Source of the DNA: Clostridia bacterium
GTDB lineage: Bacteria; Bacillota; Clostridia; UBA1212; DUPL01
Reading direction: 5' to 3'
NCBI GenBank assembly: GCA_050951325.1
Contig: JBMNIW010000005.1
Span: 160,001-224,000 of the forward strand
Length of the DNA stretch: 64,000 nt
Shown: in pieces, positions 246-61,067 of the stretch
Position numbering within the stretch: the stretch's first letter is position 1
Layout of the letters: each line of letters begins with the position of its first letter
Program-made: the position numbers and the translations under genes
Notes under the pieces: model-generated
What the model was told of the DNA's origin: nothing
The model's input: only the letters and a program-made list of their open reading frames with translations
The model's database searches: none

Positions 246-1319
246 ATGATTAATGAAAGATTAATGCAATTGAATTTGCCCAAGCTGTTTAAGTTTGATG
301 ATGGCAGTACTGTTGAAAATGTGAATGACTGGGAGAGAAGAAGAGATGAGATAATAGATGTAATTCTGAAAGAAGAGTATGGAACGATCCCTCCTCGGCC
401 TGATAATGTATTTGTAAAGGACATGAGGAGAGTACATAATGATTTTGCTGGAAAAGGAGAGCATTTGATTTACGATTTATGTTTTATGACAGAAAGAGGC
501 GAGTTTTCTTTTCCTGTAAATGTTGTAAAGCCAAAAGGCAATAAAAAGAATCCAGCCGTTGTACATATTGCATTTAGGCCTGACATACCTGATAAATACT
601 ATCCAGCAGAGGAAGTGTTGGATTTGGGTTTAACAGTGTTTACTTTCTGCTATCAGGATGTTACAACTGATGATGACTTTGAAAGTGGACTTGCAGCTAT
701 GTATGACAGAAACAAATGGACATGGGGTAAAATTGGAATGTGGGCTTTTGCCGCAATGAGGGTTTGTGATTTGTTGTGTACATTTGATTATGTGGACAGT
801 AACAATATTGCCGTTATGGGACATTCAAGACTAGGCAAAACCGCTTTGCTTGCAGGAGCTCTGGACGAGCGTTTCAAATATGTCATTTCAAATAATTCAG
901 GCTGTTCCGGTGCAGCCATATCCAGAGGCAAAGAGGGAGAGAGAATAAAGGATATTTGCAACCGGTTTGGCTATTGGTTCTGTGAAAACTACAAAAAATA
1001 CATGGACAATGAAGAAAAAATGCCTTTTGATCAACATTTTCTATTGTCCTTGATTTGTCCAAGATATTTGTATGTTTCCAGTGCAATAGAGGATAAATGG
1101 GCGGATCCCTTTAATGAATTCATTACTCTTAAAGAGGTTGACAAAGTATATTGTTTGCATGGGATAGATGGTTTTGCAAGTGAAGACAGTTTTCCCAGAC
1201 CTGGTGATGTATTTTCTGAAGGCAGAGTGGGTTATCATTTAAGAGAGGGAACCCATTATGTCAGTAGATATGATTGGTTAAGGTTTGCAGAATTTATAAA
1301 AAAAGGTGATAGAATATGA
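246..1319 (+). CDS. CE15-like (glucuronoyl esterase family) alpha/beta hydrolase
   Basis: GHSRLGK nucleophile elbow, SGCSGAA, DQH and WAD motifs, C-terminal His (GTH); no signal peptide. Confidence 0.75.
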   Translation: MINERLMQLNLPKLFKFDDGSTVENVNDWERRRDEIIDVILKEEYGTIPPRPDNVFVKDMRRVHNDFAGKGEHLIYDLCFMTERGEFSFPVNVVKPKGNKKNPAVVHIAFRPDIPDKYYPAEEVLDLGLTVFTFCYQDVTTDDDFESGLAAMYDRNKWTWGKIGMWAFAAMRVCDLLCTFDYVDSNNIAVMGHSRLGKTALLAGALDERFKYVISNNSGCSGAAISRGKEGERIKDICNRFGYWFCENYKKYMDNEEKMPFDQHFLLSLICPRYLYVSSAIEDKWADPFNEFITLKEVDKVYCLHGIDGFASEDSFPRPGDVFSEGRVGYHLREGTHYVSRYDWLRFAEFIKKGDRI

Positions 1320-3904
1320 GAAAACGAGCATTGGTACTGGTTTTCCTGTTGGCTTATCTGTTTGCAATAACTTTTGGAGATACATATGCAAATCAGGAAA
1401 ATGAAAAGCAAAGATGGTATGAGATTAAAGAGATTGATTATGAATTTGACTTCGAGGAAAAGAAACTAAGCTTTTATCTTACTCATGAAGCTCTGATTAT
1501 TGAAGATAGAGCAAATATGGAGATAAAAGACGGAAGGTTGTATGCCAAAGGCGGAAAAAGCTTCAGGTTTGGAAGCAGTGTGTGTTTGGGTGACAGCTAC
1601 GGTCTTGAAGACGGTTTTCTTGAGTTTGACATGCTGCAAAAAGACAACAAAGGAGAACTTGTGCTTGGCATAAGGCTGCAGAGAGTTTCTGCAACTGAAG
1701 ACAAACCCGGTATATGGCTTTCATTCAAAGCAGGAAAGCTTGTTATTGATGAGAACGAAAGCGGTATAACTGCAAGCATTGATATTCCTGTTGAGACAAA
1801 CAAAGTTCATAAATACAAGATAAATGACAACAGAAATGAAATTGAAATACTTATTGACGACAATGTTGTAGCAAAGATTCTTTATGATGCAAAAGGCTAT
1901 CTTGCATTTACAGACAAGTCAGACAATGTAATTGACTCAACGGAGGAATCCAAGATTTATCCTACCGGCTACTTTAACATAATACCAAGGGATTTTTACG
2001 GATATTTGGACAATCTAAAGTTCAGACATGTGGAAGTGGATGAAACTTTGCCTGAAGGCCCAATGAGGGATGTGGACTATTCATACTGGGTGGCATCCGA
2101 TGATCTTGGCAGGACAACTCCTGCATATGATAAAGTTGGAGAAATAAAAGAGGACAAATATGTGGGAATCTTTTATTTCATCTGTGTTACAGGTGCGGGC
2201 CTTAAAGTGCAGGATAATACCAAAATTTATTTGGAGAGAGGAATCGATGGACTTAAACAGTACCTGGAAACTCAAGGTGGAGAAGGATACTGGGCAGAAC
2301 CATATTTCGGCTATTACAGAAACACGGATGCATGGGTGTATAGAAAACATGCATACATGCTGTCTGCTGCAGGAATTGACTTTATCTTCATTGACATCTC
2401 CAACGAGCCCACTTTTAATGAAGCTCATACACTGTTGTTTGATACCTGGCTTCAGATGAGGAAGGAAGGATTCAAGACTCCACAAATCATGTTTTTGACT
2501 GGAGATGCGGAAGGAAGACTTGGTTCCCATCTGAGACAGCTTCGCAGAACTGTCTACAGTGACGAGAATTGGGATAAATATGAAGAGCTTTTCTTCAAAT
2601 GGGAAGGCAAGCCTCTCATTTTTGGAAATCCAAATGGTTTGACTGAAGACATGCAGAAGTTGATCAATGAAAAGTTTACGCTGAGAGGCAGCTGGGCATG
2701 GAAGGATGTGGATGGATACTGGAACTGGATTATGGAGTATCCACAGGCAAAAGGAAGAAGCTTTGAAGGAGTATTTGAGCAGATGGCAGTTACAATGGGT
2801 CATCATCCTTCAGCCAGCAAGGGAAGAAGCTTTGTAAGCGGCAAACAGCCAAACAACGGCAAGGAGGACTTTGAGTTTTCATCAGATACCGCACGGTATG
2901 GTTTGTCCTTTAAGCAACAGTTTGAGTATGCATTGGAAATGGATCCCCAGGTAATCATGATAACCGGGTGGAATGAATGGATTGCGGGCAAGCCAACAGG
3001 AGATGAATTAAACTATTTTGCAAACACTCCTGTTAATGGCTATACATATGTGGATCAGTTCAATCCAGAGTTCTCAAGGGACGGAGAACCTATGAAGATA
3101 CGTGATGGTGTTGGCTTTGGAGACAACTTCTACTATCAAATGGTAGGATATATAAGGAAGTTCAAGGGACTGAACGAAATAGAAAAAGCTAAAAATCAGA
3201 AAACAATAAATATTAATGGGGGCATGTCCCAGTGGGATGATATTGGTCCTGAGTTCAGGGATACAATAGGGGATACGAAGTTCAGAAACGAGCCTTCGTA
3301 CGATCTTGATTTCAGGTATATTAACAATACTGGAAGAAACGACTTTGATTACGCTAAAGTATCCCAGGACAATGAAAACATATACTTCATGGTAAAGACA
3401 GTGAACGACATTGTTCATGCTGACGGTCCTAACTGGATGAACCTGTTTATTGACCTTGATCAAAGCCATAAAAGTGGCTGGGAAGGTTATGATTACATAA
3501 TCAACAGGACCGGAAATAACGGCAAATGCACAATTGAAAGATTCAAAAACAATAGCTGGGATTTTGAAAAGGTTGGGGAAGCAAGATATACTGTAAATGG
3601 CCAATATATGATGGTAAGTGTTCCAAAGAAAGCATTGGGTATAAGCGACAAGGCCGTTTCCTTTGATTTCAAATGGGCTGACAACTCCACAACATCTGGA
3701 GATGTAATGCAATTTATGGATCTTGGAGATGCTGCTCCAAATGATCGCTTCAAGTTTAGATATATTGCTTCAACCTCCATCTTTGACAACCTAATAAACA
3801 CCATTTTAATTATTGGTGGTGCAGTGGTATTACTGGTTGTTGTTAGTGTTATAGTTTTTGTCTTGCTTAGAAGAAGAAAGAAAAGAAGCATGCAGTTTAT
3901 GTAA
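1316..3904 (+). CDS. secreted, C-terminally membrane-anchored glycoside hydrolase-like protein (GH99/GH71-like barrel) with N-terminal beta-rich domain; paralog A
   Basis: signal peptide; WAEPYFGYY, RKHAYML, ITGWNEW, DQFNPEFSRD motifs; C-terminal TM helix plus RRRKKR; ATGA overlap with the upstream esterase. Confidence 0.7.
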   Translation: MRKRALVLVFLLAYLFAITFGDTYANQENEKQRWYEIKEIDYEFDFEEKKLSFYLTHEALIIEDRANMEIKDGRLYAKGGKSFRFGSSVCLGDSYGLEDGFLEFDMLQKDNKGELVLGIRLQRVSATEDKPGIWLSFKAGKLVIDENESGITASIDIPVETNKVHKYKINDNRNEIEILIDDNVVAKILYDAKGYLAFTDKSDNVIDSTEESKIYPTGYFNIIPRDFYGYLDNLKFRHVEVDETLPEGPMRDVDYSYWVASDDLGRTTPAYDKVGEIKEDKYVGIFYFICVTGAGLKVQDNTKIYLERGIDGLKQYLETQGGEGYWAEPYFGYYRNTDAWVYRKHAYMLSAAGIDFIFIDISNEPTFNEAHTLLFDTWLQMRKEGFKTPQIMFLTGDAEGRLGSHLRQLRRTVYSDENWDKYEELFFKWEGKPLIFGNPNGLTEDMQKLINEKFTLRGSWAWKDVDGYWNWIMEYPQAKGRSFEGVFEQMAVTMGHHPSASKGRSFVSGKQPNNGKEDFEFSSDTARYGLSFKQQFEYALEMDPQVIMITGWNEWIAGKPTGDELNYFANTPVNGYTYVDQFNPEFSRDGEPMKIRDGVGFGDNFYYQMVGYIRKFKGLNEIEKAKNQKTININGGMSQWDDIGPEFRDTIGDTKFRNEPSYDLDFRYINNTGRNDFDYAKVSQDNENIYFMVKTVNDIVHADGPNWMNLFIDLDQSHKSGWEGYDYIINRTGNNGKCTIERFKNNSWDFEKVGEARYTVNGQYMMVSVPKKALGISDKAVSFDFKWADNSTTSGDVMQFMDLGDAAPNDRFKFRYIASTSIFDNLINTILIIGGAVVLLVVVSVIVFVLLRRRKKRSMQFM

Positions 3905-3911
3905 AGGGGCT

Positions 3912-3952
3912 GTCGCATTAGTCGGTTTTCAGACTGATGCGACGCTTTTTTT
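3912..3952 (+). terminator. intrinsic terminator
   Basis: GTCGCATTAGTC/GACTGATGCGAC stem plus T7. Confidence 0.75.
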
Positions 3953-4096
3953 GTTATTAGCTGTAAGTATATTCTGAATTGCAGGTGGTCAAAGAAGTGT
4001 TAGAAAGGTTTTGCTCCTTATAGTACTTGCCAAAACCTTTATTTAAATCAATGGCGTTTGCCTTCTAGATGATGGAATGATGGGGTATTATTGCTT

Positions 4097-4534: not shown

Positions 4535-4696
4535 AGCGTCACCCAATTTTATTGATATACTCTATTTTGCTGCATACATCAGATAGATATGCAGCTAATA
4601 TTTTCATAATTATCAACTAAACTTGATAATTATTCTACAAAGTGATAAAATACCTAAATGTAGGGAATTTTATTAATTAAAAAGGAGAGAGGATAA

Positions 4697-23900: not shown

Positions 23901-24076
23901 ATGTAACGCTTGTTTGTACAAGAAGAAACACCTTTGGTCCGCTGCATATTGTTCCACTTCATCATGGAGCATATGGTCCTGGACACTTTACAACAGGCGG
24001 CGACTCCTGGACTGACAACTACAACTTGATAGACAGCTGTATAAAAGACGGTGTGGTTTTCAAGATAAAAGGATAA
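20968..24076 (+). pseudogene. GH106-like (alpha-L-rhamnosidase-like) glycoside hydrolase split by one +1 frameshift near 21340
   Basis: PFWSWNG, HSRAGL, YDEDRWPSG, FTDEP, SELYGCTGW, KRDYP motifs; removing one G from GACGGGAG joins ORFs 20968-21369 and 21422-24076. Confidence 0.75.
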
Positions 24077-29261: not shown

Positions 29262-31253
29262 ATGCAAAAATACATAAACATCATTTTATCTTTTCTTTTG
29301 TTTGCAACGATTCTGCCAGGTCGTGCCGTTTCCCATGCAAGTGATCCTTCTACATGGACTGCAGTAGACGGTCTTGGAAGGAAACTGCCCGATCAAAGCG
29401 AAGTGGGCAGTGTTCGAAAAGACAGGTATGTAGGTATTTTTTACTGGACCTGGCATGACTTTTTTTCTGTGTGGGAGCCAAGGAATATTACAAAGATATT
29501 GGAGGAACATCCGGAAGCTGCAAATGATTTTTCTCATGCTGCCTGGGGCAATATGCCCAGTGGTTCTCCATATTTCTGGAATGAACCCATGTTTGGATAT
29601 TACAGCAGCAAGGATGTTTATGTTCTAAGAAAGCATGCGGAGCTTTTGGCAGATGCCTTGATTGATGTGATTGTGTTCGACTGCACGAATGATACCAACT
29701 TGTTTCTTGATGCTGCCAATGTGCTGTTCAAGGTGTTTGAGCAGGCTAAAGAGGAAGGTGTAAATGTTCCCAAATTTGCCTTTATGTTAAATATTAATCC
29801 TACAGTCATGATGGAAAACAACAGAATCGAACTTAGGGAATTGTACGAAAAGATTTACAAACTGGAGAAATACAAGGATCTGTGGTTCTACTGGGAAGGA
29901 AAACCAATAGTATTTTCTACTGACAAATGTTTGGATGCCTCTGATCCTTTGGAGAAGGAAATATTAGATTTCTTTACATTCAGAAGAATGGATGACATGT
30001 TTGATACCAAGGATACGAAGTATGAGGACAAGATGTGGGGGTGGCTATCCGTATACCCACAGACCAAGTATGGTGTGAGAGATGATGGAACTGTAGAACA
30101 GATGGCTGTTGGTATCGCCCAAAACTATAGTGATGAACATCGTTTGACGGCAATGAATGATCCAAGAGGTGGAGTGCATGGAAGAAGTTTTGCTGCAAAC
30201 GACTATTCATACTCCTATACTTACAAAGGCAAAACCATAACTGTTGATTCTAATACGGAAAACAAGATTTTGTATGGTCTTAATTTTCAGCAACAGTGGG
30301 ATTATGCATTATCTGTTGATCCGGATTTTATTTTTGTGACTGGTTGGAACGAGTGGATTGCAGGCAGATGGGAAAAGTGGATTGATGTTGACAATGCCTT
30401 TCCTGATCAATACAACGATGAATACAGCAGGGATATTGAACCTTCAAATGGATTTCTAAAGGATCATTACTATTACCAGCTGGTAGCAAATGTTAGAAGA
30501 TTCAAGGGAGTTAATGATACTGCCATACATGGTGAAATGAAAACTATTGATATTCATGGAGACATATCCCAGTGGAATGATGTAAAAGCAGAATATGTGC
30601 ATTATACAGGGAATACTCCAAAGAGGAGGAGTCACAAGGGATATGGAAGGACAAAATACACCTCCGACACGATGCGAAATGACATTGTGAAGGCAAAAGT
30701 TGCATATGATGAAAAGCATGTATACTTTTATGTTGAAACTGTAGACGCTTTGACAAGTCCTTCCGATAACGCATGGATGAGATTGTTTTTGGATGTTGAC
30801 TCTGATGATATGTTGGATTGGGAAGGCTTTGAGTATGTAGTTAACAGACTGTCTCCTTCTGAAAAAAAAGCTGTTCTGGAAAGAAGTCTGGGAGGCTGGA
30901 ATTGGGAGAAAGTAGGGGATGTAGAGTACTCGGTAAAGGGTAACGTGTTGCAGCTTGCTTTACCTAGGAACATGATAGGCATGGAGAAGGCGGTCAACTT
31001 TAATTTCAAATGGGTTGACAATACTCAGGAAGATGGCGACATTATGGATTTTTACAAGTCCGGAGATTCTGCACCTATAGGTAGATTTTCATTTGTATTC
31101 AGAAGTACGCCCCTTGACAGCAGCGTGGAAAGACAAGGATTGACATTGCCCTGGTATACTTATCTTTCCATGATTGTGGCGGTTATAAGTGTTCTGATGG
31201 CAGTTGGGTTCAGGTTGTTTGTTGTTAAAAGAAAGCTCAAATCATCTTCTTGA
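29262..31253 (+). CDS. membrane-anchored glycoside hydrolase-like protein, paralog B (no N-terminal extra domain)
   Basis: WTAVDGLGR, FWNEPMFGYY, RKHAELL, VTGWNEW, EYSRDIEP; signal peptide and C-terminal TM. Confidence 0.72.
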   Translation: MQKYINIILSFLLFATILPGRAVSHASDPSTWTAVDGLGRKLPDQSEVGSVRKDRYVGIFYWTWHDFFSVWEPRNITKILEEHPEAANDFSHAAWGNMPSGSPYFWNEPMFGYYSSKDVYVLRKHAELLADALIDVIVFDCTNDTNLFLDAANVLFKVFEQAKEEGVNVPKFAFMLNINPTVMMENNRIELRELYEKIYKLEKYKDLWFYWEGKPIVFSTDKCLDASDPLEKEILDFFTFRRMDDMFDTKDTKYEDKMWGWLSVYPQTKYGVRDDGTVEQMAVGIAQNYSDEHRLTAMNDPRGGVHGRSFAANDYSYSYTYKGKTITVDSNTENKILYGLNFQQQWDYALSVDPDFIFVTGWNEWIAGRWEKWIDVDNAFPDQYNDEYSRDIEPSNGFLKDHYYYQLVANVRRFKGVNDTAIHGEMKTIDIHGDISQWNDVKAEYVHYTGNTPKRRSHKGYGRTKYTSDTMRNDIVKAKVAYDEKHVYFYVETVDALTSPSDNAWMRLFLDVDSDDMLDWEGFEYVVNRLSPSEKKAVLERSLGGWNWEKVGDVEYSVKGNVLQLALPRNMIGMEKAVNFNFKWVDNTQEDGDIMDFYKSGDSAPIGRFSFVFRSTPLDSSVERQGLTLPWYTYLSMIVAVISVLMAVGFRLFVVKRKLKSSS

Positions 31254-46774: not shown

Positions 46775-46930
46775 ATCTCTCCCTCTTTCATCTCTTATTG
46801 GACGTCTAACTATTATCACATATATTTCGGTGTGTCAATAAGGATTGTACGCAAAATTTGTAATATTGTATTGATGAATTATCTTTAATCGGATATCATG
46901 TATTTAACATAAATGTGGAGGGTAGAAAAC

Positions 46931-48235
46931 ATGAGATTATTTGCCATAATTCTTGCTTTTATATCACTTTGCCTTACAGGATGCAGCAATACGGGGAATT
47001 CTACAAAGAAGAATGCAGGTGTGAACACATCGCTGAAGTATGAAAAGGCACCAGTTATTACGGCTGATACAGAAGTATACAATGTCATGGATTTTGGGGC
47101 AGTTGGTGATGGGAAAAAGTCTGATACTGCTGCAATAAAAGAGGCTTATGAATATGTTTCGAATAATGGTGGGGGAGTTATATACTTTCCTCCCGGAAGA
47201 TATATTGTGGAAGGGACATTGGACTTAAGCCATCAAAACGGAAACAAGGTTGTTTTTGCAGGAAATCCGGATAGAAAGAAAGATACATTTATACAATCCA
47301 CAAGATCATTAAATGCTGATTTTATTATCTTGTCAGGCTCAAATATCCATTTCACATATTTGACTATTAGGAATCTTGGAGAAACAGGTTCTGTTGTAAA
47401 CATGCAATATGATAACTGTACTCTCACAGAGTGTGCGTTTTTACAGGAAAACCCTAAAAACGAGGAAGCTGCCATTGTTGTTAGCGGCTCGAACAACTCT
47501 ATTTCTTCCTGCTACTTTGGACCTGGCACCACCAACGGCTATATTGTCAATTTTACAAAAGAGCCAGGGAGGCAATCAAAAAACAACTCATTAACAGACT
47601 CATATCTGGGCGGAGGACTTCCAAAATCAGTATTGATTGATACAAAAGATGAAGGTCATTGTCCGGAAGAAATATTTATTTCAAGAAATGTATTTTTGTT
47701 TCCTGCCATTGGACAGGTATATGTGGTTTCTGTAAAAGGATTAATAATACATAACAACATGCTTGATGCTGCAACCACCGCCATTATTCTAAACCCTGAT
47801 TTAACAGGTATCAGTGATGTTGATATAAGGTACAACTACATGGGTTCCCAGAACAAGGATATAGGCATGTTTGCAGACAGAACCGACATGGCAGGTGGAA
47901 TAGTAACCGATATTGCAAACGGAGGGACTATTAAAAATGTGGTTGTAACTGACAACTACTTTTGGGGATATTACGGTATCAGAATAACTTCAAGCAAGTT
48001 TAATAGTTTTAAAATAATCAACAACTATTTTGTAGAAAGCAATGGAAGTTCAATTTACATAACCGAATCTGCAAACAATGTCATTGAAGGAAACATCATA
48101 TACAGCGGAGTTGGTGCAGTCCATACAGTATACATAGGAAAGATTGACGATAAAACTGTTTTTAAAGACAATGCAATAGCTGGAAGCATCAGCGTACCTG
48201 ATGTGGAGAAGTACAAGGATATGAATATGTTCTAA
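46931..48235 (+). CDS. right-handed beta-helix lipoprotein (pectate lyase 3/GH28-related N-terminus)
   Basis: lipobox LTGC; NVMDFGAVGDGKKSDTAAI, YFPPGRY; Asn-rich repeats. Confidence 0.8.
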   Translation: MRLFAIILAFISLCLTGCSNTGNSTKKNAGVNTSLKYEKAPVITADTEVYNVMDFGAVGDGKKSDTAAIKEAYEYVSNNGGGVIYFPPGRYIVEGTLDLSHQNGNKVVFAGNPDRKKDTFIQSTRSLNADFIILSGSNIHFTYLTIRNLGETGSVVNMQYDNCTLTECAFLQENPKNEEAAIVVSGSNNSISSCYFGPGTTNGYIVNFTKEPGRQSKNNSLTDSYLGGGLPKSVLIDTKDEGHCPEEIFISRNVFLFPAIGQVYVVSVKGLIIHNNMLDAATTAIILNPDLTGISDVDIRYNYMGSQNKDIGMFADRTDMAGGIVTDIANGGTIKNVVVTDNYFWGYYGIRITSSKFNSFKIINNYFVESNGSSIYITESANNVIEGNIIYSGVGAVHTVYIGKIDDKTVFKDNAIAGSISVPDVEKYKDMNMF

Positions 48236-48238
48236 GGG

Positions 48239-49396
48239 GTGAACAAGATGAGAAGATGGCATTTTCTATTGATTTTGATTTCTGTTTTGATATACGCAAG
48301 CTATGAAAAGGTGGATGGTAATATGAATGTAGAGAAGGTTCGATTTGGGGATGTTGATAATAGATATTTCAATGTAATGGATTATGGTGCCAAAGGTGAC
48401 GGTGTTGGCGATGACACCAAGGCAATTGAAGACGCAATAATAGCCGCATTGAAAGTTAACGGTACCGTGTATTTTCCTAAAGGCGATTATATAATATCGG
48501 AAACTATAAGGGTTGAGAAGGATGATTCCAGGAGACTTGTTTTAAAAGGCGATGGAGAATCCAGCAAAATCATTGGTAGTGACAACCTTAAAAATCATAT
48601 GTTTGAAATACTCTTAAAGTATAATTTTCAGGTTATTGATATGTCATTCAAGCATAATGGACCTGGTGGAAGCTGCATATATTCAGTTTTCCTAAGAGCA
48701 TTCAATTGCTACTTTGAATCAAATGCTGTCAATTCATCGCCACTTATCGACTTTCATGGTTCTGATTGCAAGATAGATTCCTGTACATTCAATACCAGCA
48801 GTAAGGAAAGTTTCTCCATCTATTATTCAATGCTCGACAATGAGATTTCCATCAACAACTATATTGTCGACAATATGTTCAAAGGTGTAGGAAAAGGTAT
48901 TCTTGTAGGTGATGGCAAATACACTTCTTCAGGAAGATGTGAAGGTCTTAAAATCAACAATAACAACTTTGAAAACACAGGCGAGAACCAGATTGTAATT
49001 CAGGAAATACTGCATGTGGATATAGCGAACAATATAATGAAAGGGTCATCAATGAGCGCAATAGTGCTTGCAAGTAAAGGCCATGGACCTGACGGGATTT
49101 TTATTAATCACAATACCATAAGCGCTAATTATGCCTGTATTATAACTGAAGGAGTAAAAGGAGACTACATATCCATGACAGTCATTAGTGACAATATATT
49201 GAGTGGAGGAAGCTACGGAATTTATGATAATGTAGGTTTGAACAAATGTTTTATTCGGGACAATGTCTTTGAAAAACAAGCTAAAAATGCGATTGAGATT
49301 GAAGGTGGGGTCAATTTATTCATCATTGACAATCTTATAAGAGACAAATCCATAAGTGTAAGTAACAGTGAAAAGTATGTGATAAAGAACAATTAA
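48239..49396 (+). CDS. secreted right-handed beta-helix protein
   Basis: NVMDYGAKGDGVGDDTKAI, YFPKGDY; N-terminal hydrophobic segment. Confidence 0.8.
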   Translation: MNKMRRWHFLLILISVLIYASYEKVDGNMNVEKVRFGDVDNRYFNVMDYGAKGDGVGDDTKAIEDAIIAALKVNGTVYFPKGDYIISETIRVEKDDSRRLVLKGDGESSKIIGSDNLKNHMFEILLKYNFQVIDMSFKHNGPGGSCIYSVFLRAFNCYFESNAVNSSPLIDFHGSDCKIDSCTFNTSSKESFSIYYSMLDNEISINNYIVDNMFKGVGKGILVGDGKYTSSGRCEGLKINNNNFENTGENQIVIQEILHVDIANNIMKGSSMSAIVLASKGHGPDGIFINHNTISANYACIITEGVKGDYISMTVISDNILSGGSYGIYDNVGLNKCFIRDNVFEKQAKNAIEIEGGVNLFIIDNLIRDKSISVSNSEKYVIKNN

Positions 49397-50417: not shown

Positions 50418-50484
50418 TGGAATTTTAAAATAGTATGATATACAATACAAGTAGTTGAATTGTTTTGTTAAAGGAGATATTAAG

Positions 50485-52764
50485 ATGTTTAAAGTCTCGC
50501 ATAGATGTATTGTATTGAGAGATGATGCTGTGGAAAGAAAAAGCTTGAACACAAAGCTTCTGGGTCATCATTTGCTGCGTGTTGAAGGAATACAAAATGC
50601 AGCCAGCATGTACAGGGGAAAAAATGCCTGCATTGTTGCGTCCGGTATTGCAAATATAATAGAGAATTTTCCACCCATAATACAGGACGGAGAGCTGATT
50701 GTTGGTTACAATTATCCCGACAACCCTTATCCTGACTGGTGGATTTGCCCGGATACCGAGGAATATCGAAAATTACTTCAAGAAATCGGATTCTCAAAAG
50801 AAAGGGTTGATAGATACTTTGCTACAAGAGACAAAGTATCAGAACTGTTTGATTATGCACCAAACCCTGAGTTTAATGAAGTTGACAAACAGCTGGATAC
50901 GGAGTGGGCTTCAATAGGTCGCTGCATATCCGACAATCATTCGGTAATAGGATATGAGGATGTATTAAAGTATGGATTTGAGGGCCTTTTGGAAAAGGTT
51001 TTGGAATATGAGCGTAAGAACGGCTCTTCTGATTTGTATGAAAGCATGAAGATAATCTGTAAATCAGCATGCAGGATTGGTGAAATATATGCAGATTTGG
51101 CAAGAAAACTGCAGCTGGACCCTTCTATTGATGAAATAAGACGATTGGAACTTGAAAAAATAGAAAAGGTATGCAGACAGGTACCTACAAAACCTGCACG
51201 TTCTTTCCATGAAGCAGTACAGAGTTTATGGTTTGCCCATATAATCAATACCTGGGAAGACGGAATAAATGCAAATTCGTTAGGGAGACTGGATCAGATT
51301 CTTTACCCATATTACATACACGATATAGAAAATGGAACTATTACAAAAGAACAGGTTTTTGAACTTATCTGCTGCTTATGGATAAAATTATACAGAGATT
51401 ACGATGTGCAGCAATCTTGCGTTGGTGGATGTCTGGCTGATGGCAGTTCTGTCGTAAATGATTTGTCATACATGATGCTGGATGCAACGGAGCAGCTTGG
51501 ATTTGTTCGCTGTCTGTCTGTAAGGTTCTCATCACAAACTGACAAAATGTTTTTAAGACGGGCTCTCGAGGTGGTCGGAAGAGTCAAATCTGGAATACCT
51601 TTCTTTTTCAATGATGAGGTAATGATTCCTGCCCTTGTTTCAAAGGGAATCTCACTTGAAGATGCAAGAAACTATACACAGATTGGTTGTGTGGAAACTG
51701 TAATTCCCGGAAAGTCCAATCCTCATGCAGTTTCAGGTCAAACAAATCTTCTTAAAGCTGTTGAATATGCTTTTGGAAACGGCAGGAGTTTGTTTAATCC
51801 TGAATTCAAACCTGGACTGACAACTGGAGATATTGATACATTTAAAACTTATGAGGATTTTGAAAATGCAGTTTTGAAGCAAATCAAACACATATTGGAC
51901 AATTCCTGCAAAAAGGTGTATGAATGGACATGTGCTGCAAGAAAAAACGCAGTAAAACCTGTAAAGTCACTTCTTACCGAAGGGTGTGTTGAATCCAACA
52001 GGGATTTCAACAACCATGGTGCAAAGTACGATTATTATCAAATCATGCTGGGAGGCGTACCAAACCTGGCGGATTCTTTGATGGTTGTAAAGAAACTAGT
52101 TTTTGAAGATGAAAGATATTCATTACAGTACATGAAAGAACAGCTCGAAAAGGACTTTCCAAATGAAATCTTCAGGATGGAGTGTATTCACAAGGTACCA
52201 AAGTATGGTAATGATATTGATGAAGTGGATGAGATTGCATCACGAATTATTGAATATTCGTGTAAAGTTCTAGACGAGATGGAAGAGAAATATGGTCTAA
52301 AATTTCATGCACAGCCCTTTACTTTTCTTTGGATGGTCGACCATGGCAGAGTAACTTCAGCAACTCCTGACGGACGAAGAAAGGGAGAAATAATTGCATA
52401 CAGCATGTCACCAATGCAGGGACGTGACAAAAACGGCTTTACCGCACTTATGAACACATTGTCAAAATTGCCTGGAAAAATGTGTCCTGGCACGGTTTCT
52501 GCCATTGTTGAAGTCGACCCAAAACTGTATACGGAGAACAACATAGATTACTTTGTAGATATACTTGTTGCGTGTGCCGGTAAAGGCATTGCAAATGTTC
52601 AGTTCAACACCATAGATGCAGATACCTTGATAGATGCGCAAAAGTATCCTGACAAGTATTCAAATCTTGCAGTACGAGTATCCGGCTTCAGCCAGAAGTT
52701 TAATTTGCTGGACAAAAACTTGCAGGATCATATTATAGGAAGGACAAAGCACCAATGCATGTAG
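50485..52764 (+). CDS. glycyl radical enzyme of unassigned class
   Basis: SLGRLDQ, GCVE single-Cys loop, PKYGND, ATPDGR, C-terminal RVSGF glycyl motif; AAGGAG RBS. Confidence 0.9.
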   Translation: MFKVSHRCIVLRDDAVERKSLNTKLLGHHLLRVEGIQNAASMYRGKNACIVASGIANIIENFPPIIQDGELIVGYNYPDNPYPDWWICPDTEEYRKLLQEIGFSKERVDRYFATRDKVSELFDYAPNPEFNEVDKQLDTEWASIGRCISDNHSVIGYEDVLKYGFEGLLEKVLEYERKNGSSDLYESMKIICKSACRIGEIYADLARKLQLDPSIDEIRRLELEKIEKVCRQVPTKPARSFHEAVQSLWFAHIINTWEDGINANSLGRLDQILYPYYIHDIENGTITKEQVFELICCLWIKLYRDYDVQQSCVGGCLADGSSVVNDLSYMMLDATEQLGFVRCLSVRFSSQTDKMFLRRALEVVGRVKSGIPFFFNDEVMIPALVSKGISLEDARNYTQIGCVETVIPGKSNPHAVSGQTNLLKAVEYAFGNGRSLFNPEFKPGLTTGDIDTFKTYEDFENAVLKQIKHILDNSCKKVYEWTCAARKNAVKPVKSLLTEGCVESNRDFNNHGAKYDYYQIMLGGVPNLADSLMVVKKLVFEDERYSLQYMKEQLEKDFPNEIFRMECIHKVPKYGNDIDEVDEIASRIIEYSCKVLDEMEEKYGLKFHAQPFTFLWMVDHGRVTSATPDGRRKGEIIAYSMSPMQGRDKNGFTALMNTLSKLPGKMCPGTVSAIVEVDPKLYTENNIDYFVDILVACAGKGIANVQFNTIDADTLIDAQKYPDKYSNLAVRVSGFSQKFNLLDKNLQDHIIGRTKHQCM

Positions 52765-53663
52765 ATACATTGATTGCAAATATTGTAAGAGGATCTCTAC
52801 ATGACGGCAGAGGCATTCGCACGGTAGTATATTTCAAAGGCTGCAACATGAAATGCAAATGGTGTCACAACCCGGAATGTATTTCTTTTCAGTCTGAGAT
52901 ATTGTATGCAGATAGCAAATGCATAAGGTGTGGTGTATGTGTTGAGACATGTACAAATCATGTTATTTATGATGACAAGCATGTTTTTAATCGTGAGGGT
53001 TGTACAGCCTGTGGGGAATGTGCCTCCAATTGTCCTGTGAATGCTCTGGAACTATGCGGAGTAAATATGAGTACTGACACAGTCCTAAAGGAGATTCTGA
53101 AGGACAAACACTATTACGATACATCGTCAGGAGGAGTTACATTCTCAGGTGGGGAGTGCCTGCTTCATCCAGAGTATGTACTTGAATTGTGCAAGCTTTG
53201 TAAAGAGAATGCAGTTTCGATAACAATAGAGACTGCATTGAATGTGTCTTGGGAAGCGATTGAGCTGGTTTATCCGTATGTGGATACTTTTTATGTGGAT
53301 ATTAAGCATATGGATGATGAAAAGCACTGTTTCCATACTGGTTGTAGTAATGAAAGGGTATTGAATAATCTGAAAAGGCTGGCAAAAGTCCATGGCGATA
53401 TCATTGTAAGAACTCCTTTAATACCGAGAGTGAATGATTCGTATGAGAATCTTGTTGAAACTGCTAAATTTGCACACAACCTAGGAATAAAGAGAGTTGA
53501 GTTTCTGAGATACAACATACTGGGTAAATCGAAATATGATTTGCTGCAGAAAGATTATGTATCATATTCTGACGAAACACAAGCCAAGGAGTATATGGAT
53601 GATTTGTGCCAAAGAATTAATTGCTTGATTGGTGAGGGGGATTTTGTTTTTTGGGTGGAATAG
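52755..53663 (+). CDS. glycyl radical enzyme activating enzyme with ferredoxin insert
   Basis: HDGRGIRT, CxxxCxxCHNPE, two CxxCxxCxxxC clusters, GGVTFSGGE. Confidence 0.92.
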   Translation: MHVDTLIANIVRGSLHDGRGIRTVVYFKGCNMKCKWCHNPECISFQSEILYADSKCIRCGVCVETCTNHVIYDDKHVFNREGCTACGECASNCPVNALELCGVNMSTDTVLKEILKDKHYYDTSSGGVTFSGGECLLHPEYVLELCKLCKENAVSITIETALNVSWEAIELVYPYVDTFYVDIKHMDDEKHCFHTGCSNERVLNNLKRLAKVHGDIIVRTPLIPRVNDSYENLVETAKFAHNLGIKRVEFLRYNILGKSKYDLLQKDYVSYSDETQAKEYMDDLCQRINCLIGEGDFVFWVE

Positions 53664-53689: not shown

Positions 53690-55099
53690 ATGATTAAGAT
53701 AAGTCCTGTACCTGATGAAAGTTACAAGTCCCATGATTTTGTAATTACTGTAAATGGAATCAATTTGGATGCATACAAGTGCAGGGTATCAAGAATTCCA
53801 TTCAACAGGGTATGGCCAGGATATCAAAGACCTTTGGATCAAACCGAAATGGCGTCCTTTGCATATTTGGCAGCCGATGAAGAGGTGGAGTTTGCCATCA
53901 CTCCAAACAAGGACTTCAGTGAAGTAGTCATAAGACCTTTGTCTAAAAAAGTAGAGTTTGATGTACAAAATGGTGTAATAAGGTTCAGAATAAAGAAGGC
54001 AGGGCAGTATACAGTGGAATTGGATGGACACCACAATGCTCTTCATTTGTTTGTAAATCCGATTGAAGAGTATCTTAAAGATGATAACACCATATACTTT
54101 GGCCCTGGGGTGCATTATGCCGGGCATATAGATATGCAGGACAATCAAACGATTTTTGTTGATTCCGGTGCGGTAGTACATTGCTCTATAACTGCTGCCG
54201 ATAAAAAGAACATAGCTATAAAAGGGCATGGAATAATTGACAACAGCTCATTTAAAAGGCCTTCCAAGTCGTGTCTAAGATGTCCAACAAGTGTTGTATT
54301 TACCAGATGTATGAATGTAGAAATTAGTGGAGTCATATTCAATGATGCCAGCGCATGGACGGCTACGTTCTTTAACTGTGACAATATCTTGGTGGACAAT
54401 ATCAAAACAATTGGTATGTGGAGATACAATTCGGATGGTGTTGACTTTGTCAACAGTTCCAATGGAATTGTCAGGAATAGCTTCCTCCGCAACTTTGATG
54501 ATGTCATTGTTTTGAAGGGGATTAAAGGTTATGACCATAGGAATGTTGAAAATATCCTGGTAGAGAATTGTGTCTTGTGGTGCGACTGGGGAAGAGCTCT
54601 TGAAATTGGGGCTGAAACCTGTGCTGATGAGTACAGAAATATTGTCTTTAGAAACTGTGATATCATACATGCTTCAACAAAAGCGATGGATCTTCAAAAT
54701 GGAGACAGAGCAAATGTGCACATGGTACTTTTCGAGGACATTAGAGTGGAGTACAGCAAATACGCAATGCCAGAGGTTTATCAGGAGAGTGATGATATGG
54801 AGTATGTATGGGATGGAAAGCCAAACATTCCATGGCTTTTCTATGCTCACTTGTACTGTGGTCTTTGGTCTGACGACAATCTTCTTGGCACAAACAGCAA
54901 TATAAGGCTTAAGAATATTCAAGTATTCATGGATGAAGGTCTTGAAAGACCTAAAATTGGGCTTTATGGTGCAAATGAAGATCACATGACATATGATATA
55001 ACTATTGAAGATCTATATATAAATGGTGTGAAAGTTGTATCCTATGAGGATGCGAACATTCACACCAACGAGTTTGTGCAAAATGTTGTTGTCAAATAA
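53690..55099 (+). CDS. GH28-related beta-helix glycoside hydrolase (cytoplasmic)
   Basis: YFGPGVH, IKGHGIID, NSDGVD, DD.I..K, EIGAET; no signal peptide. Confidence 0.75.
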   Translation: MIKISPVPDESYKSHDFVITVNGINLDAYKCRVSRIPFNRVWPGYQRPLDQTEMASFAYLAADEEVEFAITPNKDFSEVVIRPLSKKVEFDVQNGVIRFRIKKAGQYTVELDGHHNALHLFVNPIEEYLKDDNTIYFGPGVHYAGHIDMQDNQTIFVDSGAVVHCSITAADKKNIAIKGHGIIDNSSFKRPSKSCLRCPTSVVFTRCMNVEISGVIFNDASAWTATFFNCDNILVDNIKTIGMWRYNSDGVDFVNSSNGIVRNSFLRNFDDVIVLKGIKGYDHRNVENILVENCVLWCDWGRALEIGAETCADEYRNIVFRNCDIIHASTKAMDLQNGDRANVHMVLFEDIRVEYSKYAMPEVYQESDDMEYVWDGKPNIPWLFYAHLYCGLWSDDNLLGTNSNIRLKNIQVFMDEGLERPKIGLYGANEDHMTYDITIEDLYINGVKVVSYEDANIHTNEFVQNVVVK

Positions 55100-56474: not shown

Positions 56475-56542
56475 TAACCATATTGAAAACTGATTCTAAA
56501 AATGATAGTATAGGGTATTTTTATTTAGAAAGGAAGAGATAA

Positions 56543-57382
56543 ATGATTTTGTCAACACCAACGGATTATCTGTCATACCGTTTGGGTTTGGAAAAGGCAA
56601 TCAGGCTATTATGCGAAACTGGATATGATGCACTAGACTTCACAATGTTCTGTCTTGCAAATGAAAAGGATCCGCTGCATACTGAAGGTAACAAGTATGT
56701 TGAAAAAATTAAAAAGATTGTAGATGGGTATGGCGTTTATTTCAACCAGGCCCATGCCCCGTTTCCATCTTTTAAAGAAGGGGACGAGGAGTTCAATAAA
56801 AGGATGTTTAAAGCAATTGTTAGATCGATGGAAATATGCTGCATACTGGAAATTGGAATTGTTGTTGTTCATCCCATAGATTGGTCAAACGCACAAGAAG
56901 TGATGCAGAAGAACGTAGAGTTCTTCAACAGCCTCATACCATACTGTGAGAAATACAATGTGAAGATTGCATTGGAAAACAACCACCTTTATCAAACGGC
57001 AGAGCAGTTATCGGAACTTGTAGATTCCCTTGATGACAAATTCTTTACAGTATGTCTTGATACAGGACACTGTCATTTGTTTGGGCAGGATACAGCAAGC
57101 ATGATAAGAAAACTGGGGAATGACAGATTGAAAGCTCTTCATGTTCATGACAATGATGCTGTCATTGACCGCCATACGGCTCCATATTTTGGAACTATGG
57201 ATTGGACCTCTATTACCAACGCTCTTGCAGAAATCAATTACTCCGGTGATTTTACGCTTGAGGCTGACAGTTTTTATCATAAACTTCCTAACGAACTTCT
57301 TCCTGCGAGTGCAAAATATCTGCATGATATTGGAAGGCTGCTAGTTGAAATGGTCGAAAAAGCTAAAAAGAGTAATAGCTAG
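56543..57382 (+). CDS. sugar phosphate isomerase/epimerase (xylose isomerase-like TIM barrel)
   Basis: QAHAPF, VVHP, IALEN, CLDTGH, LHVHDN, LEA. Confidence 0.88.
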   Translation: MILSTPTDYLSYRLGLEKAIRLLCETGYDALDFTMFCLANEKDPLHTEGNKYVEKIKKIVDGYGVYFNQAHAPFPSFKEGDEEFNKRMFKAIVRSMEICCILEIGIVVVHPIDWSNAQEVMQKNVEFFNSLIPYCEKYNVKIALENNHLYQTAEQLSELVDSLDDKFFTVCLDTGHCHLFGQDTASMIRKLGNDRLKALHVHDNDAVIDRHTAPYFGTMDWTSITNALAEINYSGDFTLEADSFYHKLPNELLPASAKYLHDIGRLLVEMVEKAKKSNS

Positions 57383-57453
57383 TAAAGTAAGACAGAGCTG
57401 CAACTGCTCGATAATATAGGTTGTGGCTCTTTTCATATATTTAGGAGGGAATT

Positions 57454-60222
57454 ATGAGGAAAATAATAGCAGTTGTTAGAATGTTGACATTAGTTGTTGT
57501 GGCTACGTCACTTTTTTGTACAAATATTTCTTTTACAAGTAATGGAACGAGCACTTTGTATATCACTCAAAACAAGAATTATAACATAGAGTATAACGTA
57601 TAAAAACTGGATTTGACTGAAGAGGATCCGAAAGCATACAACAACTCAAATGAATGGGGTTTTTTAGATGCAGGCAATCTTCAGATTAAGGATGCCAGGT
57701 TGTATTGCAAACCCGGTAAATCCTTTTCAATACGTGGAAAGCAAATACTTGGAAATGAATATGGTCTTGAAGAAAGTCCGGTTAAGTTTAATATGGTACT
57801 TGAAGATGGTGTGGTTCGTGTAGGTGTCAGGTTGAGATCTTCCGTGTCAGCAAAAGACACTGGAATTTGGTTTAATATTGACGGTGAATCGGTGACTGTT
57901 ACAGCCAGTGGAACACCTTTGGAAGCGGAAATTAAGCATGAACTTTATCTTGATGAAGAACATGAATACAGGATTGTAAATACTTTCAACAAGATAAGTC
58001 TTTATATAAGTGAGAAGTTGGTAGCATATGTGGATTATACATATGACGAAGATATAACTGTCAGAGATTCATTCGGAAATGTTGTAGGTGAACGGGTAAG
58101 AAATGACAGGACACCTCAGTTTGGCTTCTGGAAGATAACAGTGGAGAATCTAAAAGGTTATATCAAAGATTTAGAGTATGTGAACAGTGTTGTTACACAG
58201 CAGGATTTTCCTGAAAGGGACAAAAGACTAATCAATTACGAAACATGGGTGGCAACGGATGATCTGAACAGGACCACACCAACCAACGTAGAAGCAGGTA
58301 ACAGAAAGAAGAACAAGTATGTTGGTCTGTTCTATTTCCTGAATCATGCAGACGAGCGTGAACATGTAATTCATGATGTCACAAAAATATTTATGGAGCA
58401 GGGTCTTGATGAACTGAAAACAATATTGCCGAATACTTTGAGAATATACTGGGCGGAACCATATTTCGGCTATTATCTGAATACTGACACTTGGGTGTAT
58501 AGAAAGCATGCGTATATGTTTAACGCTGCTGGTATTGATTTCATATTTATCGATTTTTCAAACAATATTGTTTATGAAGAAGGGCTTCAAGCCTTGCTTG
58601 AAACCTGGCTTAGAATTCGAAAAGAAGGTGGAGACACTCCTCAAGTTGTGTTTATGACAGGGGATATGCCTCATGTATTGGTACATGACTTGTATGTGTT
58701 GAAAGACCTTGTATTCAACAATCCGGAATATGATGAGTTGTGGTTCAAATGGGACGGAAAACCCTTGATTTTAGGCAACAATGATGATCCTGATGGAGAT
58801 GTATGGACAATTTCAGAAGAAACTGTTGGAACATATACGAAAGAAATGATGTTCGCAAATCTGACTGAAGCAGAAAAGGAGTTCTACAACAGTGGAGAGT
58901 TTGGAAAACTTCTTGAGAAGTTTACTGTCAGAAAGAGCTGGGCAAGGCAATCAAGGAAATATGAAAAGGATAAGAAGTATGCAGGATACTGGGATTGGCT
59001 GGATGAGTGGCCACAAGCATATGGTAGAAGTTTCAAAGGTGTAAAAGAGCAGATGAGCGTTTCCATAGCAGCAACAGCAATGACCCATAAGGGAAGAAGT
59101 TATGTTAAAGGCAATGTTGACTATGGGACCGGTCTAGAGGACTTTGATTTTAGCTTGGGTAAAGCACAGTACGGCCTTCATTTCGAGGAACAATTCCAAG
59201 AAGCCTTAAAGGCTGATTCCGATGTTATAATGATTACGGGATGGAATGAATGGACTGCAGGCAAGCAGACCAACCCTTATCCAAATATGAGAACAGGCCA
59301 TACCAGCACTCCGTATTACCATTTTGTTGACCAGTTCAACCCGGAGTTCTCAAGGGATGCAGAACCAATGAAGGTGAGAGATGGTGTAGGCTTTGGAGAC
59401 AACTACTACTATCAAATGGTAAACCACATTAGACTTTTTAAAGGGATAGAACCAATAAAAGGGGTAAAGGATACGAATGGCATAAGCTTTGATGGTATTG
59501 CTGAAGAAGGAGAGAAACGTTTACTTCAGGTTGATGATAAAATTATGAGCCAATGGGACAAAATTGAGTACAGGTACATGGATTCAGTCGGTGATACAGC
59601 TTTTCGTAACTTTAACTCAATGGGTTCCCAATACCGTTATATCAATGCAACGGGAAGAAATGATATTGATTACGCAAAGGTGACTCAGGATGATTATTTC
59701 TTGTATTTCATGGTAAAGACAGCATCGGGGATTATCAGTGTAGATGAGGAAAACTGGATGAACCTGTTCGTTGACATAGATAAAAACCATGAAACTGGGT
59801 GGGAAGGATATGACTTTGTCATAAACAGAAGTCGTGACGGAAAAACCGTTATAGTTGAGAAGTTTGTGAACAATAGTTGGGAGTTTGAAACTGTTGGCAG
59901 AGCTGATTACCTTATGGGAAGTGACAACCTGACTATTAAAGTTTCAAAGGAACTGTTAGGTATATCTGAGAATGATTTTTCATTCGATTTCAAATGGGCT
60001 GACAACTCCACAAACATAGGCAATGTAATGCAATTCATGGATTTGGGCGACTGTGCACCGAATGACAGATTTAACTTCAGATTCACAACCACGGACATTC
60101 AGTACAAACCAAAGGCATTAGGACAACTTAACTATGTCCTGATAACTTTAGGTGTAGTATTTGTCATACTAATTGCAATATTTATATATAAAAAAGTAAA
60201 AGTAAAAGGAGAGAGAAAATGA
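57454..60222 (+). pseudogene. membrane-anchored glycoside hydrolase-like protein, paralog C, with an in-frame TAA at 57601-57603
   Basis: AGGAGG RBS, ATG 57454 and signal peptide are in frame with ORF 57613-60222; motifs nearly identical to 1316-3904 (YWAEPYFGYY, ITGWNEW, VDQFNPEFSRD, FDFKWADNST). Confidence 0.78.
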
Positions 60223-61067
60223 GAAAACACATTTTGCTGGTGATGGTATTGGTGTTGGTACTCACCATAGTGTCATGTAATAAGCAGGACAAAGAACCAA
60301 GTGCAACCCAGACACCTCAGCTTACACAAGAACCTACAGCCGTTCCTACAGAAGGGCCAACGGCTGAACCCAAGGCAACTCTTAAGCCGATCACAAACAA
60401 GGGGTATCCTCAAGAGGAGGCGGAAGTACTCATATTTGAAGATTTTGACGATGGTGAAATAGATGAAAATGAATTTGTAGTTGTACTGGGTGAGAATGCA
60501 GACATAATCGATGGTGAGATGCATATTACAAGAGAGTGGACTGCATTGTCTCCTGAATATGATTACGCCATTGGAACACTTCACCATCAATATGAGTTCT
60601 CAATGGAGTACTACTCAACATTTGGCAGATTAAGCGCACCTCACGTAGCATACTGGGTTGGGGCAAGGGTTCCACCTGAGAGGTATGCAGCATATCCTGG
60701 TGGATTCTGGGTGGCTTTTACACATACAAATATTGCCTTTGTTTATCCTGGTGGTGATAATTTTGAAGGTAAAGAACACTGGGCAGAGAAGTGTTTTCAA
60801 ATAAATGTGCCGGAGGAGTTTACGACGAAGCATAAGATTACTGTTGTTGATACCGGTGATGAAATCTATTACTACATGAACACTACCGACGAAGAGTATT
60901 ACCTTATCCTTAAGGCGGTGCTTGATGGTGCGGATCTGCTTTTGTATGATAAGGATGACAATATGTTCTGGGCAGGAGAAAATGCACTGAATGATGAAAT
61001 CGGATTCTCCATATTCAGTCATCGTCAGGCATCTCATACAGATAATGTTACACTTAAGGGACATTAA
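60219..61067 (+). CDS. lipoprotein with Pro/Thr linker and the shared beta-rich domain
   Basis: lipobox IVSC, TQEPTAVPTEGPT linker; ATGA overlap with paralog C. Confidence 0.75.
   Translation: MRKHILLVMVLVLVLTIVSCNKQDKEPSATQTPQLTQEPTAVPTEGPTAEPKATLKPITNKGYPQEEAEVLIFEDFDDGEIDENEFVVVLGENADIIDGEMHITREWTALSPEYDYAIGTLHHQYEFSMEYYSTFGRLSAPHVAYWVGARVPPERYAAYPGGFWVAFTHTNIAFVYPGGDNFEGKEHWAEKCFQINVPEEFTTKHKITVVDTGDEIYYYMNTTDEEYYLILKAVLDGADLLLYDKDDNMFWAGENALNDEIGFSIFSHRQASHTDNVTLKGH

Follow-up and report, generated by a model that had tools for sequence, protein, structure and literature searches.

The 64,000-nt stretch of DNA analysed here (the window) encodes three related, enzyme-like surface proteins, and inside or beside them it encodes copies of a beta-rich domain. 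We asked what this domain is and whether it is a partner of the enzymes. Our best explanation, to which we give a probability of about 0.58, is that it is a surface glycan-binding module acting in cis or in trans with a GH99-like enzyme, in about 50 paralogous cassettes.

All features described below are on the forward strand, and the open reading frames were found at the positions assigned by an earlier, sequence-only reading. Gene A (1316..3904; 862 aa) encodes a signal peptide, a lectin-like domain that we call N2 (residues 30-250; 1403..2065; a ConA-like beta-sandwich), a GH99-like barrel, a beta-rich C-terminal domain and a C-terminal membrane anchor. Gene B (29262..31253; 663 aa) is the minimal form, with a signal peptide, the barrel, the beta-rich domain and the membrane anchor. 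Gene C (57454..60222) has the architecture of A. We compared A to the other two proteins. A is 43% identical to C across almost the full length, including the N-terminal domain, and 34% identical to B (E 3e-104). In the alignment with B, residues 254-858 of A pair with residues 28-663 of B; that is, B is without the initial ~250 residues of A. At the C-terminus, all three proteins have a hydrophobic helix and then basic residues. These comparisons bear out the proposal that A, B and C are paralogs with a common core and a C-terminal transmembrane anchor, and that A and C have an extra N-terminal domain that is missing in B.

Each of the three genes has a close neighbour. A gene for a CE15-type glucuronoyl esterase (246..1319; Pfam PF22244 GCE_fung, E 2.9e-28), with no visible signal peptide in its product, is upstream from A. 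Since its stop codon and the start of A overlap, both genes are probably in one operon. P0003 (28156..29256), a member of a family that we call F3, ends 5 nt before the start of B and has a signal peptide, a ConA-like domain (residues ~22-300), a Pro/Thr-rich linker and its own C-terminal membrane anchor. P0004 (60219..61067), a lipoprotein of the F4 family whose start overlaps the stop of C by 4 nt, has a lipoprotein signal, a Pro/Thr-rich linker and a ConA-like domain (residues ~60-282).

Gene C had been described as an open reading frame with an N-terminal domain at 57454-60222. The coordinates and the domain stand, but in this strain the frame is not intact. An in-frame TAA 49 codons in (57601..57603) interrupts it downstream from the signal peptide, and the frame reopens at a TTG at 57613. 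The same letters are present in contigs from two other runs, and the site is TAC in a low-depth minor variant contig from a third run. The match of the N2 profile on C continues across the TAA. Coverage from the RNA run X16 was confined to 57300-57535.

We found that the core shared by A, B and C is distantly related to glycoside hydrolase family GH99. The core profile (A1) matched PDB chains of GH99 (BtGH99 4acy, BxGH99 4ad1/5lyr and human MANEA 6zdc; Pfam PF16317) with E-values from 9.7e-10 to 3.9e-5 over the whole barrel, from profile positions 62-358 on chain positions 43-345. The motifs 'GYY..D..V..H' and 'NEW' are common to both. By these profile matches, the core is a distant GH99-like (beta/alpha)8 barrel, and the earlier description of it as glycoside-hydrolase-like agrees with this kinship, with activity putative. 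The general base of GH99 is the Glu of 'NEW', E333 in BxGH99 and E329 in BtGH99 (PMC6055899). E364 of B aligns with BtGH99 E329 of 4acy and is invariant in 33/33 aligned core-family sequences. The core family keeps this general-base Glu. In contrast, the catalytic acid, the Glu of 'HEG' (BxGH99 E336, BtGH99 E332), is absent from the core, which has the consensus 'WNEWxAG' at this site, with Ala in B at that column. Because of this difference, even the assignment as a hydrolase is putative.

The core differs from GH99 in other ways. It carries a further C-terminal domain, beta-rich and ~200 aa long, as well as a membrane anchor, and unlike GH99 it is hugely expanded in Clostridia. PF16317 did not match the three core copies in the window at E<=0.1. 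It matched 10 of 20 other paralogs at only 21.6-26.3 bits, so that the family stays below the gathering cut-off of 33 bits. DUF5010 (PF16402) was considered and rejected: across the genome nothing matched it at E<=0.01, and the control in B. thetaiotaomicron gave matches. An Atlas cluster labelled 'DUF5010' is a look-alike of B (score 0.94), which we record as a lead only. Within the literature library that we searched, no paper was found to describe the core family.

The sequence-only reading had proposed that four beta-rich regions, the N-terminal domains of A and C and the domains of P0003 and P0004, carry a common ordered series of motifs. Pairwise BLAST gave no significant likeness among them (E 0.036, 0.13 and 9e-4), and with shallow alignments hhalign gave a clear result for N2-F4 alone (94.8%; N2-F3 38%, F3-F4 0.6%). 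Family alignments of greater depth (31, 21 and 15 sequences) made every one of the three family pairs significant over ~190-200 columns: 96.8% for N2-F3 (E 2.5e-10), 98.7% for N2-F4 (E 4.5e-16) and 96.5% for F3-F4 (E 8.8e-10). The six motifs fell in matching columns of these alignments. Because the deep alignments are significant and the motifs are in equal columns, the series reflects homology and not chance. N2, F3 and F4 are sub-families of one so far unnamed superfamily with the ConA-like lectin/glucanase fold. They differ in placement: N2 is fused before the barrel (A and C), F3 is anchored by its own C-terminal helix (P0003), and F4 proteins are lipoproteins (P0004). N1, an unrelated beta domain family of the same genome, was rejected as a fifth copy (hhalign <1% against N2, F3 and F4).

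Two of the four regions were modelled. Both gave a two-sheet jelly-roll sandwich of the ConA-like lectin/glucanase type, superposable on members of that fold, in line with the earlier suggestion of a shared jelly roll. Structural matches include CBM66 of Bacillus subtilis (4b1m/4azz), L-type lectins (ERGIC-53, Emp46p/47p and legume lectins), the YesU-like 1oq1 and the PF06439-type 3imm/3s5q. Identity to these is 9-18%, and F3 has large insertions. For CBM66 (Foldseek E 2.1e-8, TM 0.47/0.61, 17-18% identity) the likeness is at the level of fold only. Sequence kinship with CBM66 was rejected: the N2 profile (A3), run against all PDB sequences, gave two chance matches (E 0.02 and 0.23), neither of them CBM66.

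The lectin-like domain had no match among Pfam, NCBIfam or PDB sequences. Searches with A, B, C, P0003 and P0004 against the same three collections (phmmer) gave nothing meaningful, and the N2 and F3 profiles (A3 and A4) found only chance-level or linker/TM matches among PDB sequences. PF06439 (3keto-disac_hyd/DUF1080) was rejected as the family of the domain, with no match on the four window copies, none of which is among its 9 genome-wide matches at E<=1; among 39 paralogs it matched L033 alone, in a different N-terminal region. The earlier reading had called the domain a ConA/lectin-like binding module and a new CBM family. The fold and the novelty with respect to Pfam hold up; the carbohydrate-binding role is putative. 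Like a CBM in the CAZy sense, the domain forms a fold of its own within or next to a carbohydrate-active enzyme. Since that name also calls for demonstrated carbohydrate binding, we refer to it as a candidate CBM family.

The window turned out to be a sample of a large expansion. The bacterium, which is from an anaerobic digester, has a 3.08-Mb genome with 55 core open reading frames at ~50 loci, together with 20 F3 and 13 F4 proteins; the core alone makes up 3.45% of the genome. The three enzymes noted earlier are thus paralogs as proposed, but their number falls far short of the total. More widely, >5,000 clusters at 90% identity belong to the core family, and 383 clusters at 50% identity belong to F3.

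We found that the two families are genetically coupled. Eleven of the 33 stand-alone F3/F4 copies directly adjoin a core gene, ten times the random expectation (3.3%). In relatives, a core gene is present in 11/25 F4 loci and beside 11/29 F3 loci, and F4-core, F3-core and N2-core-F3 fusions exist. The fusion/fission (Rosetta-stone) pattern that had been proposed is therefore real, and the domain is enriched beside this hydrolase family. Both the superfamily and its linkage to the core are new here. It could be argued that there is no specific partnership: that the domain is a generic surface module and the adjacency comes from the sheer number of both families. Both are indeed highly expanded, and 22 of the 33 stand-alone copies do not adjoin a core gene, which we counted against a partnership. 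The domain also has many other partners (GH43, a CE2-type esterase, dockerin, cohesin and a ricin-type lectin), so it is not exclusive to the core hydrolase. Against this explanation are the tenfold excess of adjacency, its recurrence across further genera and families within the order, and the existence of fusions in several domain orders; we disfavour it and consider it very improbable. Two features of the data count against our main explanation. Partner type tracks clades in the tree of the core, so the adjacent pairs are not independent and their binomial P is overstated; and fusion to a core is present in only 4 of 150 F3 representatives.

The ConA-like fold also houses enzymes, and it is possible that the lectin-like proteins are themselves catalytic, as GH16-like glycanases, lyases or PF06439-like cleavers of 3-keto-glycosides, and that they and the GH99-like enzyme attack the same glycan one after the other. 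GH16 is at the top of the VIA list for P0003, and a 'YExDxY' stretch of F3 contains a near-invariant Glu; we counted both against a pure binder. Comparison of this stretch with the catalytic strand of GH16, ExDx(x)E, is neutral: the F3 consensus has the Glu and no third acid. In the hhalign alignment the segment is an insertion missing from N2, so it cannot be a catalytic centre common to both. Moreover, lectins and CBM-type domains score level with GH16 (Z within 1), no window copy matches any Pfam enzyme family, and F3, in the manner of binding modules, is found at the ends of GH43 and CE2-type enzymes and together with dockerins. We regard a catalytic role as unlikely. It is also possible that the module is a structural subunit that packs onto the barrel and completes its substrate pocket, the stand-alone copies being obligate heterodimers with the neighbouring enzyme. 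Galactocerebrosidase (GH59; 3zr5/4ccc) offers a precedent, with a TIM barrel, a beta-sandwich and a lectin domain. It differs from A and C in barrel family and domain order, and contact of N2 with the active site is hypothetical. The long, flexible Pro/Thr-rich tethers and separate anchors of P0003 and P0004 fit free-swinging binders better, and many stand-alone copies have no core neighbour. Complex prediction for B (residues 25-620) and the P0003 domain, run twice without controls, gave a score of 0.00 each time and is neutral on binding. A subunit role seems quite unlikely to us.

We return to the glycan-binding module. The homology of N2, F3 and F4, the fold of two of the regions and the coupling to the barrel by fusion and adjacency are direct results; from them we infer that the module would bind a polysaccharide substrate. 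The enzyme, with its signal peptide, divergent GH99-like barrel, beta-rich C-terminal domain and C-terminal membrane anchor, is a cell-surface protein. The lectin-like module would bind the polymer in cis when fused, or in trans when carried on a flexible Pro/Thr-rich tether of its own, and would keep it where the anchored enzyme has its active site. Products would then be freed at the cell surface for uptake, and each paralogous cassette might serve a different plant-biomass glycan.

Polysaccharide utilization loci (PULs) of Bacteroidota encode surface glycan-binding lipoproteins (SGBPs) beside glycoside hydrolases. The arrangement here is similar: a genome has many paralogous cassettes in which a tethered, non-catalytic-looking beta-sandwich protein is encoded beside a surface glycanase. 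It differs in that the host is labelled Clostridia/Ruminococcaceae and shows no SusC/SusD context, a lipid or a C-terminal helix provides the anchor in the cytoplasmic membrane, and the module is also fused to the enzyme. A bolder and more tentative idea is that these genes form a Gram-positive counterpart of the PUL machinery built entirely of unnamed parts. A 3-Mb genome might then carry ~50 'cut-and-capture' cassettes that pair a new glycoside-hydrolase family (GH99 fold, catalytic acid relocated or missing, possibly different chemistry) with a new lectin/CBM family, which would act either in cis or, separately tethered, in trans. Reused inside a cytoplasmic AraC regulator, the lectin-like domain might sense the released oligosaccharide, and fusion of some enzymes to ABC solute-binding proteins might allow hand-over for import.

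In Clostridia that digest biomass, the core and lectin-like families occupy several percent of the genome, and they are without name, assigned activity or structure. The pattern of fusions and neighbours identifies matched enzyme/binder pairs for co-expression, such as B with P0003, and such pairs are the quickest route to substrates. The likely yield is a new CBM family together with a new GH family whose GH99-type mechanism is altered, and such work would reveal how complex plant glycans are held and cut on the cell surface of Gram-positive anaerobes in digesters and guts. A search for related loci with six close F3 orthologs as query found a single locus, which is in a MAG with the label uncultured Ruminococcaceae.

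We found open reading frames at the positions assigned by the sequence-only reading, and a long core is common to A, B, and C. A (1316-3904; 862 aa) consists of the core with an extra N-terminal domain, and B (29262-31253; 663 aa) of the core without one. Identity between A and B is 34% (E 3e-104; residues 28-663 of B align with residues 254-858 of A). Between A and C it is 43% and extends over nearly the full lengths, including ~200 N-terminal residues that are absent from B. All three have a signal-like N-terminal segment and a C-terminal hydrophobic helix followed by Arg/Lys, in agreement with the membrane anchor that had been proposed. P0003 (28156-29256), which ends 5 nt before B, has a signal peptide and a beta-rich body of ~280 residues, which a Pro/Thr-rich linker joins to a C-terminal helix. 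P0004 (60219-61067), whose ATG overlaps the stop codon of C, carries a Cys-terminated lipoprotein-type leader, followed by a Pro/Thr-rich linker and a body of ~220 residues.

The N-terminal domains of A and C (here N2), P0003 and P0004 had been described as carrying a common ordered series of motifs. Pairwise BLAST gave no significant likeness (A vs P0003, E 0.036; A vs P0004, E 0.13; P0003 vs P0004, E 9e-4), and we therefore collected each family. N2 is fused to seven core genes in the source genome and was found in 26 of 45 genomes of the order, the source genome included. For the P0003 family (F3), a word-indexed search gave five other clusters, and a profile found 20 members in the source genome; for the P0004 family (F4) there were two other clusters and 13 members. 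No ORF of the source genome belongs to two of these families. With shallow alignments, hhalign gave 94.8% for N2-F4, 38% for N2-F3 and 0.6% for F3-F4. With deeper alignments (31 sequences for N2, 21 for F3 and 15 for F4), all three pairs were significant: N2-F3, 96.8% (E 2.5e-10, 196 columns); N2-F4, 98.7% (E 4.5e-16, 188 columns); and F3-F4, 96.5% (E 8.8e-10, 203 columns). N1 (24 sequences), another N-terminal domain carried by these enzymes and unrelated to the three families, served as internal control and gave <1% against each. In a search of 6,328 ORFs, an N2 HMM recovered proteins of F4 (E 5.5e-9 to 2e-4) and of F3 (E 4e-4 to 1e-2). The motifs fall in register in the hhalign alignments, from FDFEE/VDFED/EDFDD through LVLGIRL/GFFVRA/WVGARV to LDNLKF/IDDIVF/TDNVTL. 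The motif series described from the sequence therefore reflects homology.

AlphaFold2 models were obtained for residues 30-250 of A (31-sequence alignment; pLDDT 92.8, all-beta) and residues 22-300 of P0003 (20 sequences; pLDDT 88.2). The top Foldseek matches of the N2 model were CBM66 (4b1m, E 2.1e-8, TM 0.47/0.61), legume lectins and ERGIC-53, and those of the P0003 model were calreticulin, ERGIC-53, GH16 and 1oq1. Based on these matches, both domains are predicted to be concanavalin-A-like lectin/glucanase sandwiches, the kind of shared jelly-roll that had been anticipated, and no one family stands out. P0004 and the domain of C would join this set through their hhalign homology. The domain is also unnamed at the sequence level, as had been suspected: Pfam and NCBIfam found nothing on the window copies, Pfam had no match to the domain over 39 paralogs, profiles matched nothing known among PDB sequences, and no match in a genome-wide search with PF06439 falls on the lectin-like genes.

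The glycoside-hydrolase-like nature of the core, also proposed earlier, was supported by a 33-sequence profile that matched GH99 structures (4acy, 4ad1, 5lyr and 6zdc) over the whole barrel at E 1e-9 to 4e-5; PF16317 gave sub-threshold matches in 10 of 20 other paralogs. The 'WNEW' of the core aligns with 'FNEWHEG' of GH99. In GH99, E329 of BtGH99 (E333 of BxGH99) is the general base and E332/E336 the catalytic acid, as given in PMC6055899. The Glu matching the general base is invariant in the core, whereas that matching the acid is replaced, and the core is an unnamed relative of GH99 rather than a member. The acid might come from D135, D140, D391 or D401 of B, which are invariant, or from the near-invariant E393. 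At least 5,108 clusters belong to the core family (E<=1e-5; 8,000 candidates scored); their source names are hypothetical only, and a few have dockerins. Atlas look-alikes include clusters with CBM6/35/13, dockerin and a 'DUF5010' label; PF16402 (DUF5010) itself had no match in a whole-genome search.

We also examined linkage of the lectin-like domain to the core. In the source genome, a co-oriented core gene is no more than 35 bp away from 5 of the 20 F3 genes and from 6 of the 13 F4 genes, in total 11 of 33, compared to a chance expectation of 3.3% (binomial P 5e-9; from estimates of ~48 core genes among ~2,900 genes). In a midpoint-rooted FastTree of 42 cores, with clades read without support values, partner type follows clades (F4 neighbours in two separate clades, F3 neighbours in two), so the events number fewer than 11 and this P overstates the significance. 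In relatives, 11 of 25 F4 loci have a core in their 1.5-kb flanks, seven of these being single frames (665-711 aa) joining the F4 domain to the barrel, and a core gene is directly upstream on the same strand at 11 of 29 F3 loci. One frame of 1,240 aa is N2-core-F3. The fusion and adjacency pattern inferred from the window thus recurs. Among the best 150 F3 representatives (from 1.84 billion), four contain the core, including P0013, in which F3 is fused to a core and which has 57% identity to B; 136 of the other 146 show the F3 domain alone. Other partners in 29 long F3 proteins scanned were GH43, a CE2-type esterase, dockerins (4 proteins), cohesin, ricin-type lectins, and F5/8-type-C and SLH domains. 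Based on the adjacency, the fusions and these other partners, the association with the core is real and enriched, though not exclusive, a behaviour resembling that of accessory binding modules.

What is observed here is homology, fold, signals for anchoring at the surface, and genetic coupling. We infer further that the lectin-like module would bind glycan and offer it to the anchored barrel, acting in cis in A and C and in trans where P0003 accompanies B and P0004 accompanies C. An F4-like domain also occurs at residues 86-242 of a 505-aa protein with a C-terminal AraC-type HTH (C1:287311-288828). This regulator has neither signal peptide nor TM segment and is cytoplasmic. In its cluster (C1:281326-290282) a core gene lies between two F4 genes and a third F4 gene adjoins the regulator, an arrangement that fits a role in ligand recognition. 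It is possible instead that the lectin-like proteins are a second enzyme, as the GH16-like structural matches and a near-invariant Glu in the F3 'YExDxY' might suggest, but that segment is missing from N2. It is also possible that the module is an obligate subunit of the barrel, by analogy with galactocerebrosidase, whose lectin domain is the model for such an arrangement. Systems in which a lectin-like protein assists an enzyme are already known. In the literature searched, which did not extend to CAZy, we found no description of the core family, the lectin-like family, the cis/trans alternation, the scale of expansion or the missing GH99 acid.

A, B, and C are indeed paralogs, but they are far from the only three. 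The 3.08-Mb genome has 55 core ORFs (~50 loci once split ones are joined), 42 of them near full-length and together 3.45% of the genome. Genomes of the same order have 0-33 core matches, with 28 of 30 searched positive, counting the source genome. In 18 core ORFs the N-terminus is extended by 100 residues or more (10 N1, 7 N2, 1 other), and two core ORFs have a fused C-terminal ABC solute-binding domain. These two (C7:49924-53304 and C2:33009-36311; 1,100-1,126 aa; SBP_bac_8 at E 3e-9 and 3.6e-18) nest within the N2-fused clade of the core tree. N1, rejected as a relative of the ConA-like domain (hhalign <1%), is a second unnamed domain of ~145 aa. It is fused N-terminally to the core in 10 genes, is C-terminal in one (C7:36859-39618), and occurs in 15 stand-alone proteins, three directly adjoining a core gene; examples of N1 loci are C12:555678-558122 and C12:558138-558842.

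C has the core and N-terminal domain described for it, but its frame is interrupted by an in-frame TAA at 57601-57603, 49 codons from the start. The N2 profile matches C on both sides of the TAA. Contigs from two other public runs have the same letters, and a variant contig from a third has TAC (depth 2 of 7.6; 7 differences in 112 nt); the nonsense codon looks polymorphic. Based on these results, C in the source strain has probably become a pseudogene recently or, at minimum, has lost its signal peptide. A close paralog of A (C6:13108-15775; N2 domain 86% identical) is split in two overlapping ORFs, which points to a probable frameshift. Single internal stops occur in several further core copies.

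Fourteen DNA runs contain the window nearly complete; their labels are anaerobic digester, bioreactor or sludge metagenome, and three were confirmed by contig placement. Core homologs are named Clostridia or Ruminococcaceae, and one relative is labelled uncultured Ruminococcaceae.

The stop codon of a CE15-type glucuronoyl esterase gene (246-1319, + strand) overlaps the start of A; the esterase has no visible signal peptide, though its downstream partner is exported. Just past P0004, a 180-aa ORF (61413-61955, + strand) encodes a signal peptide, a short body that is rich in beta structure and includes 'GEYRVSYFVDG', and a C-terminal membrane anchor; it matched neither Pfam nor the N1, N2, F3 and F4 profiles. 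The P0003-B cassette borders mobile DNA, as genes for a DDE transposase (26159-27835) and for an HTH_38 protein (24866-25627), both on the - strand, lie just upstream. Other glycan-degrading genes are scattered within 21422-24076, 45176-49396 and 53690-55099, namely a gene with a weak GH106-like match, one with DUF5722, two for beta-helix proteins resembling pectate lyases, and a GH28. The window also encodes glucuronate isomerase (37385-38749), as well as a glycyl-radical enzyme and the corresponding activase (50455-53663).
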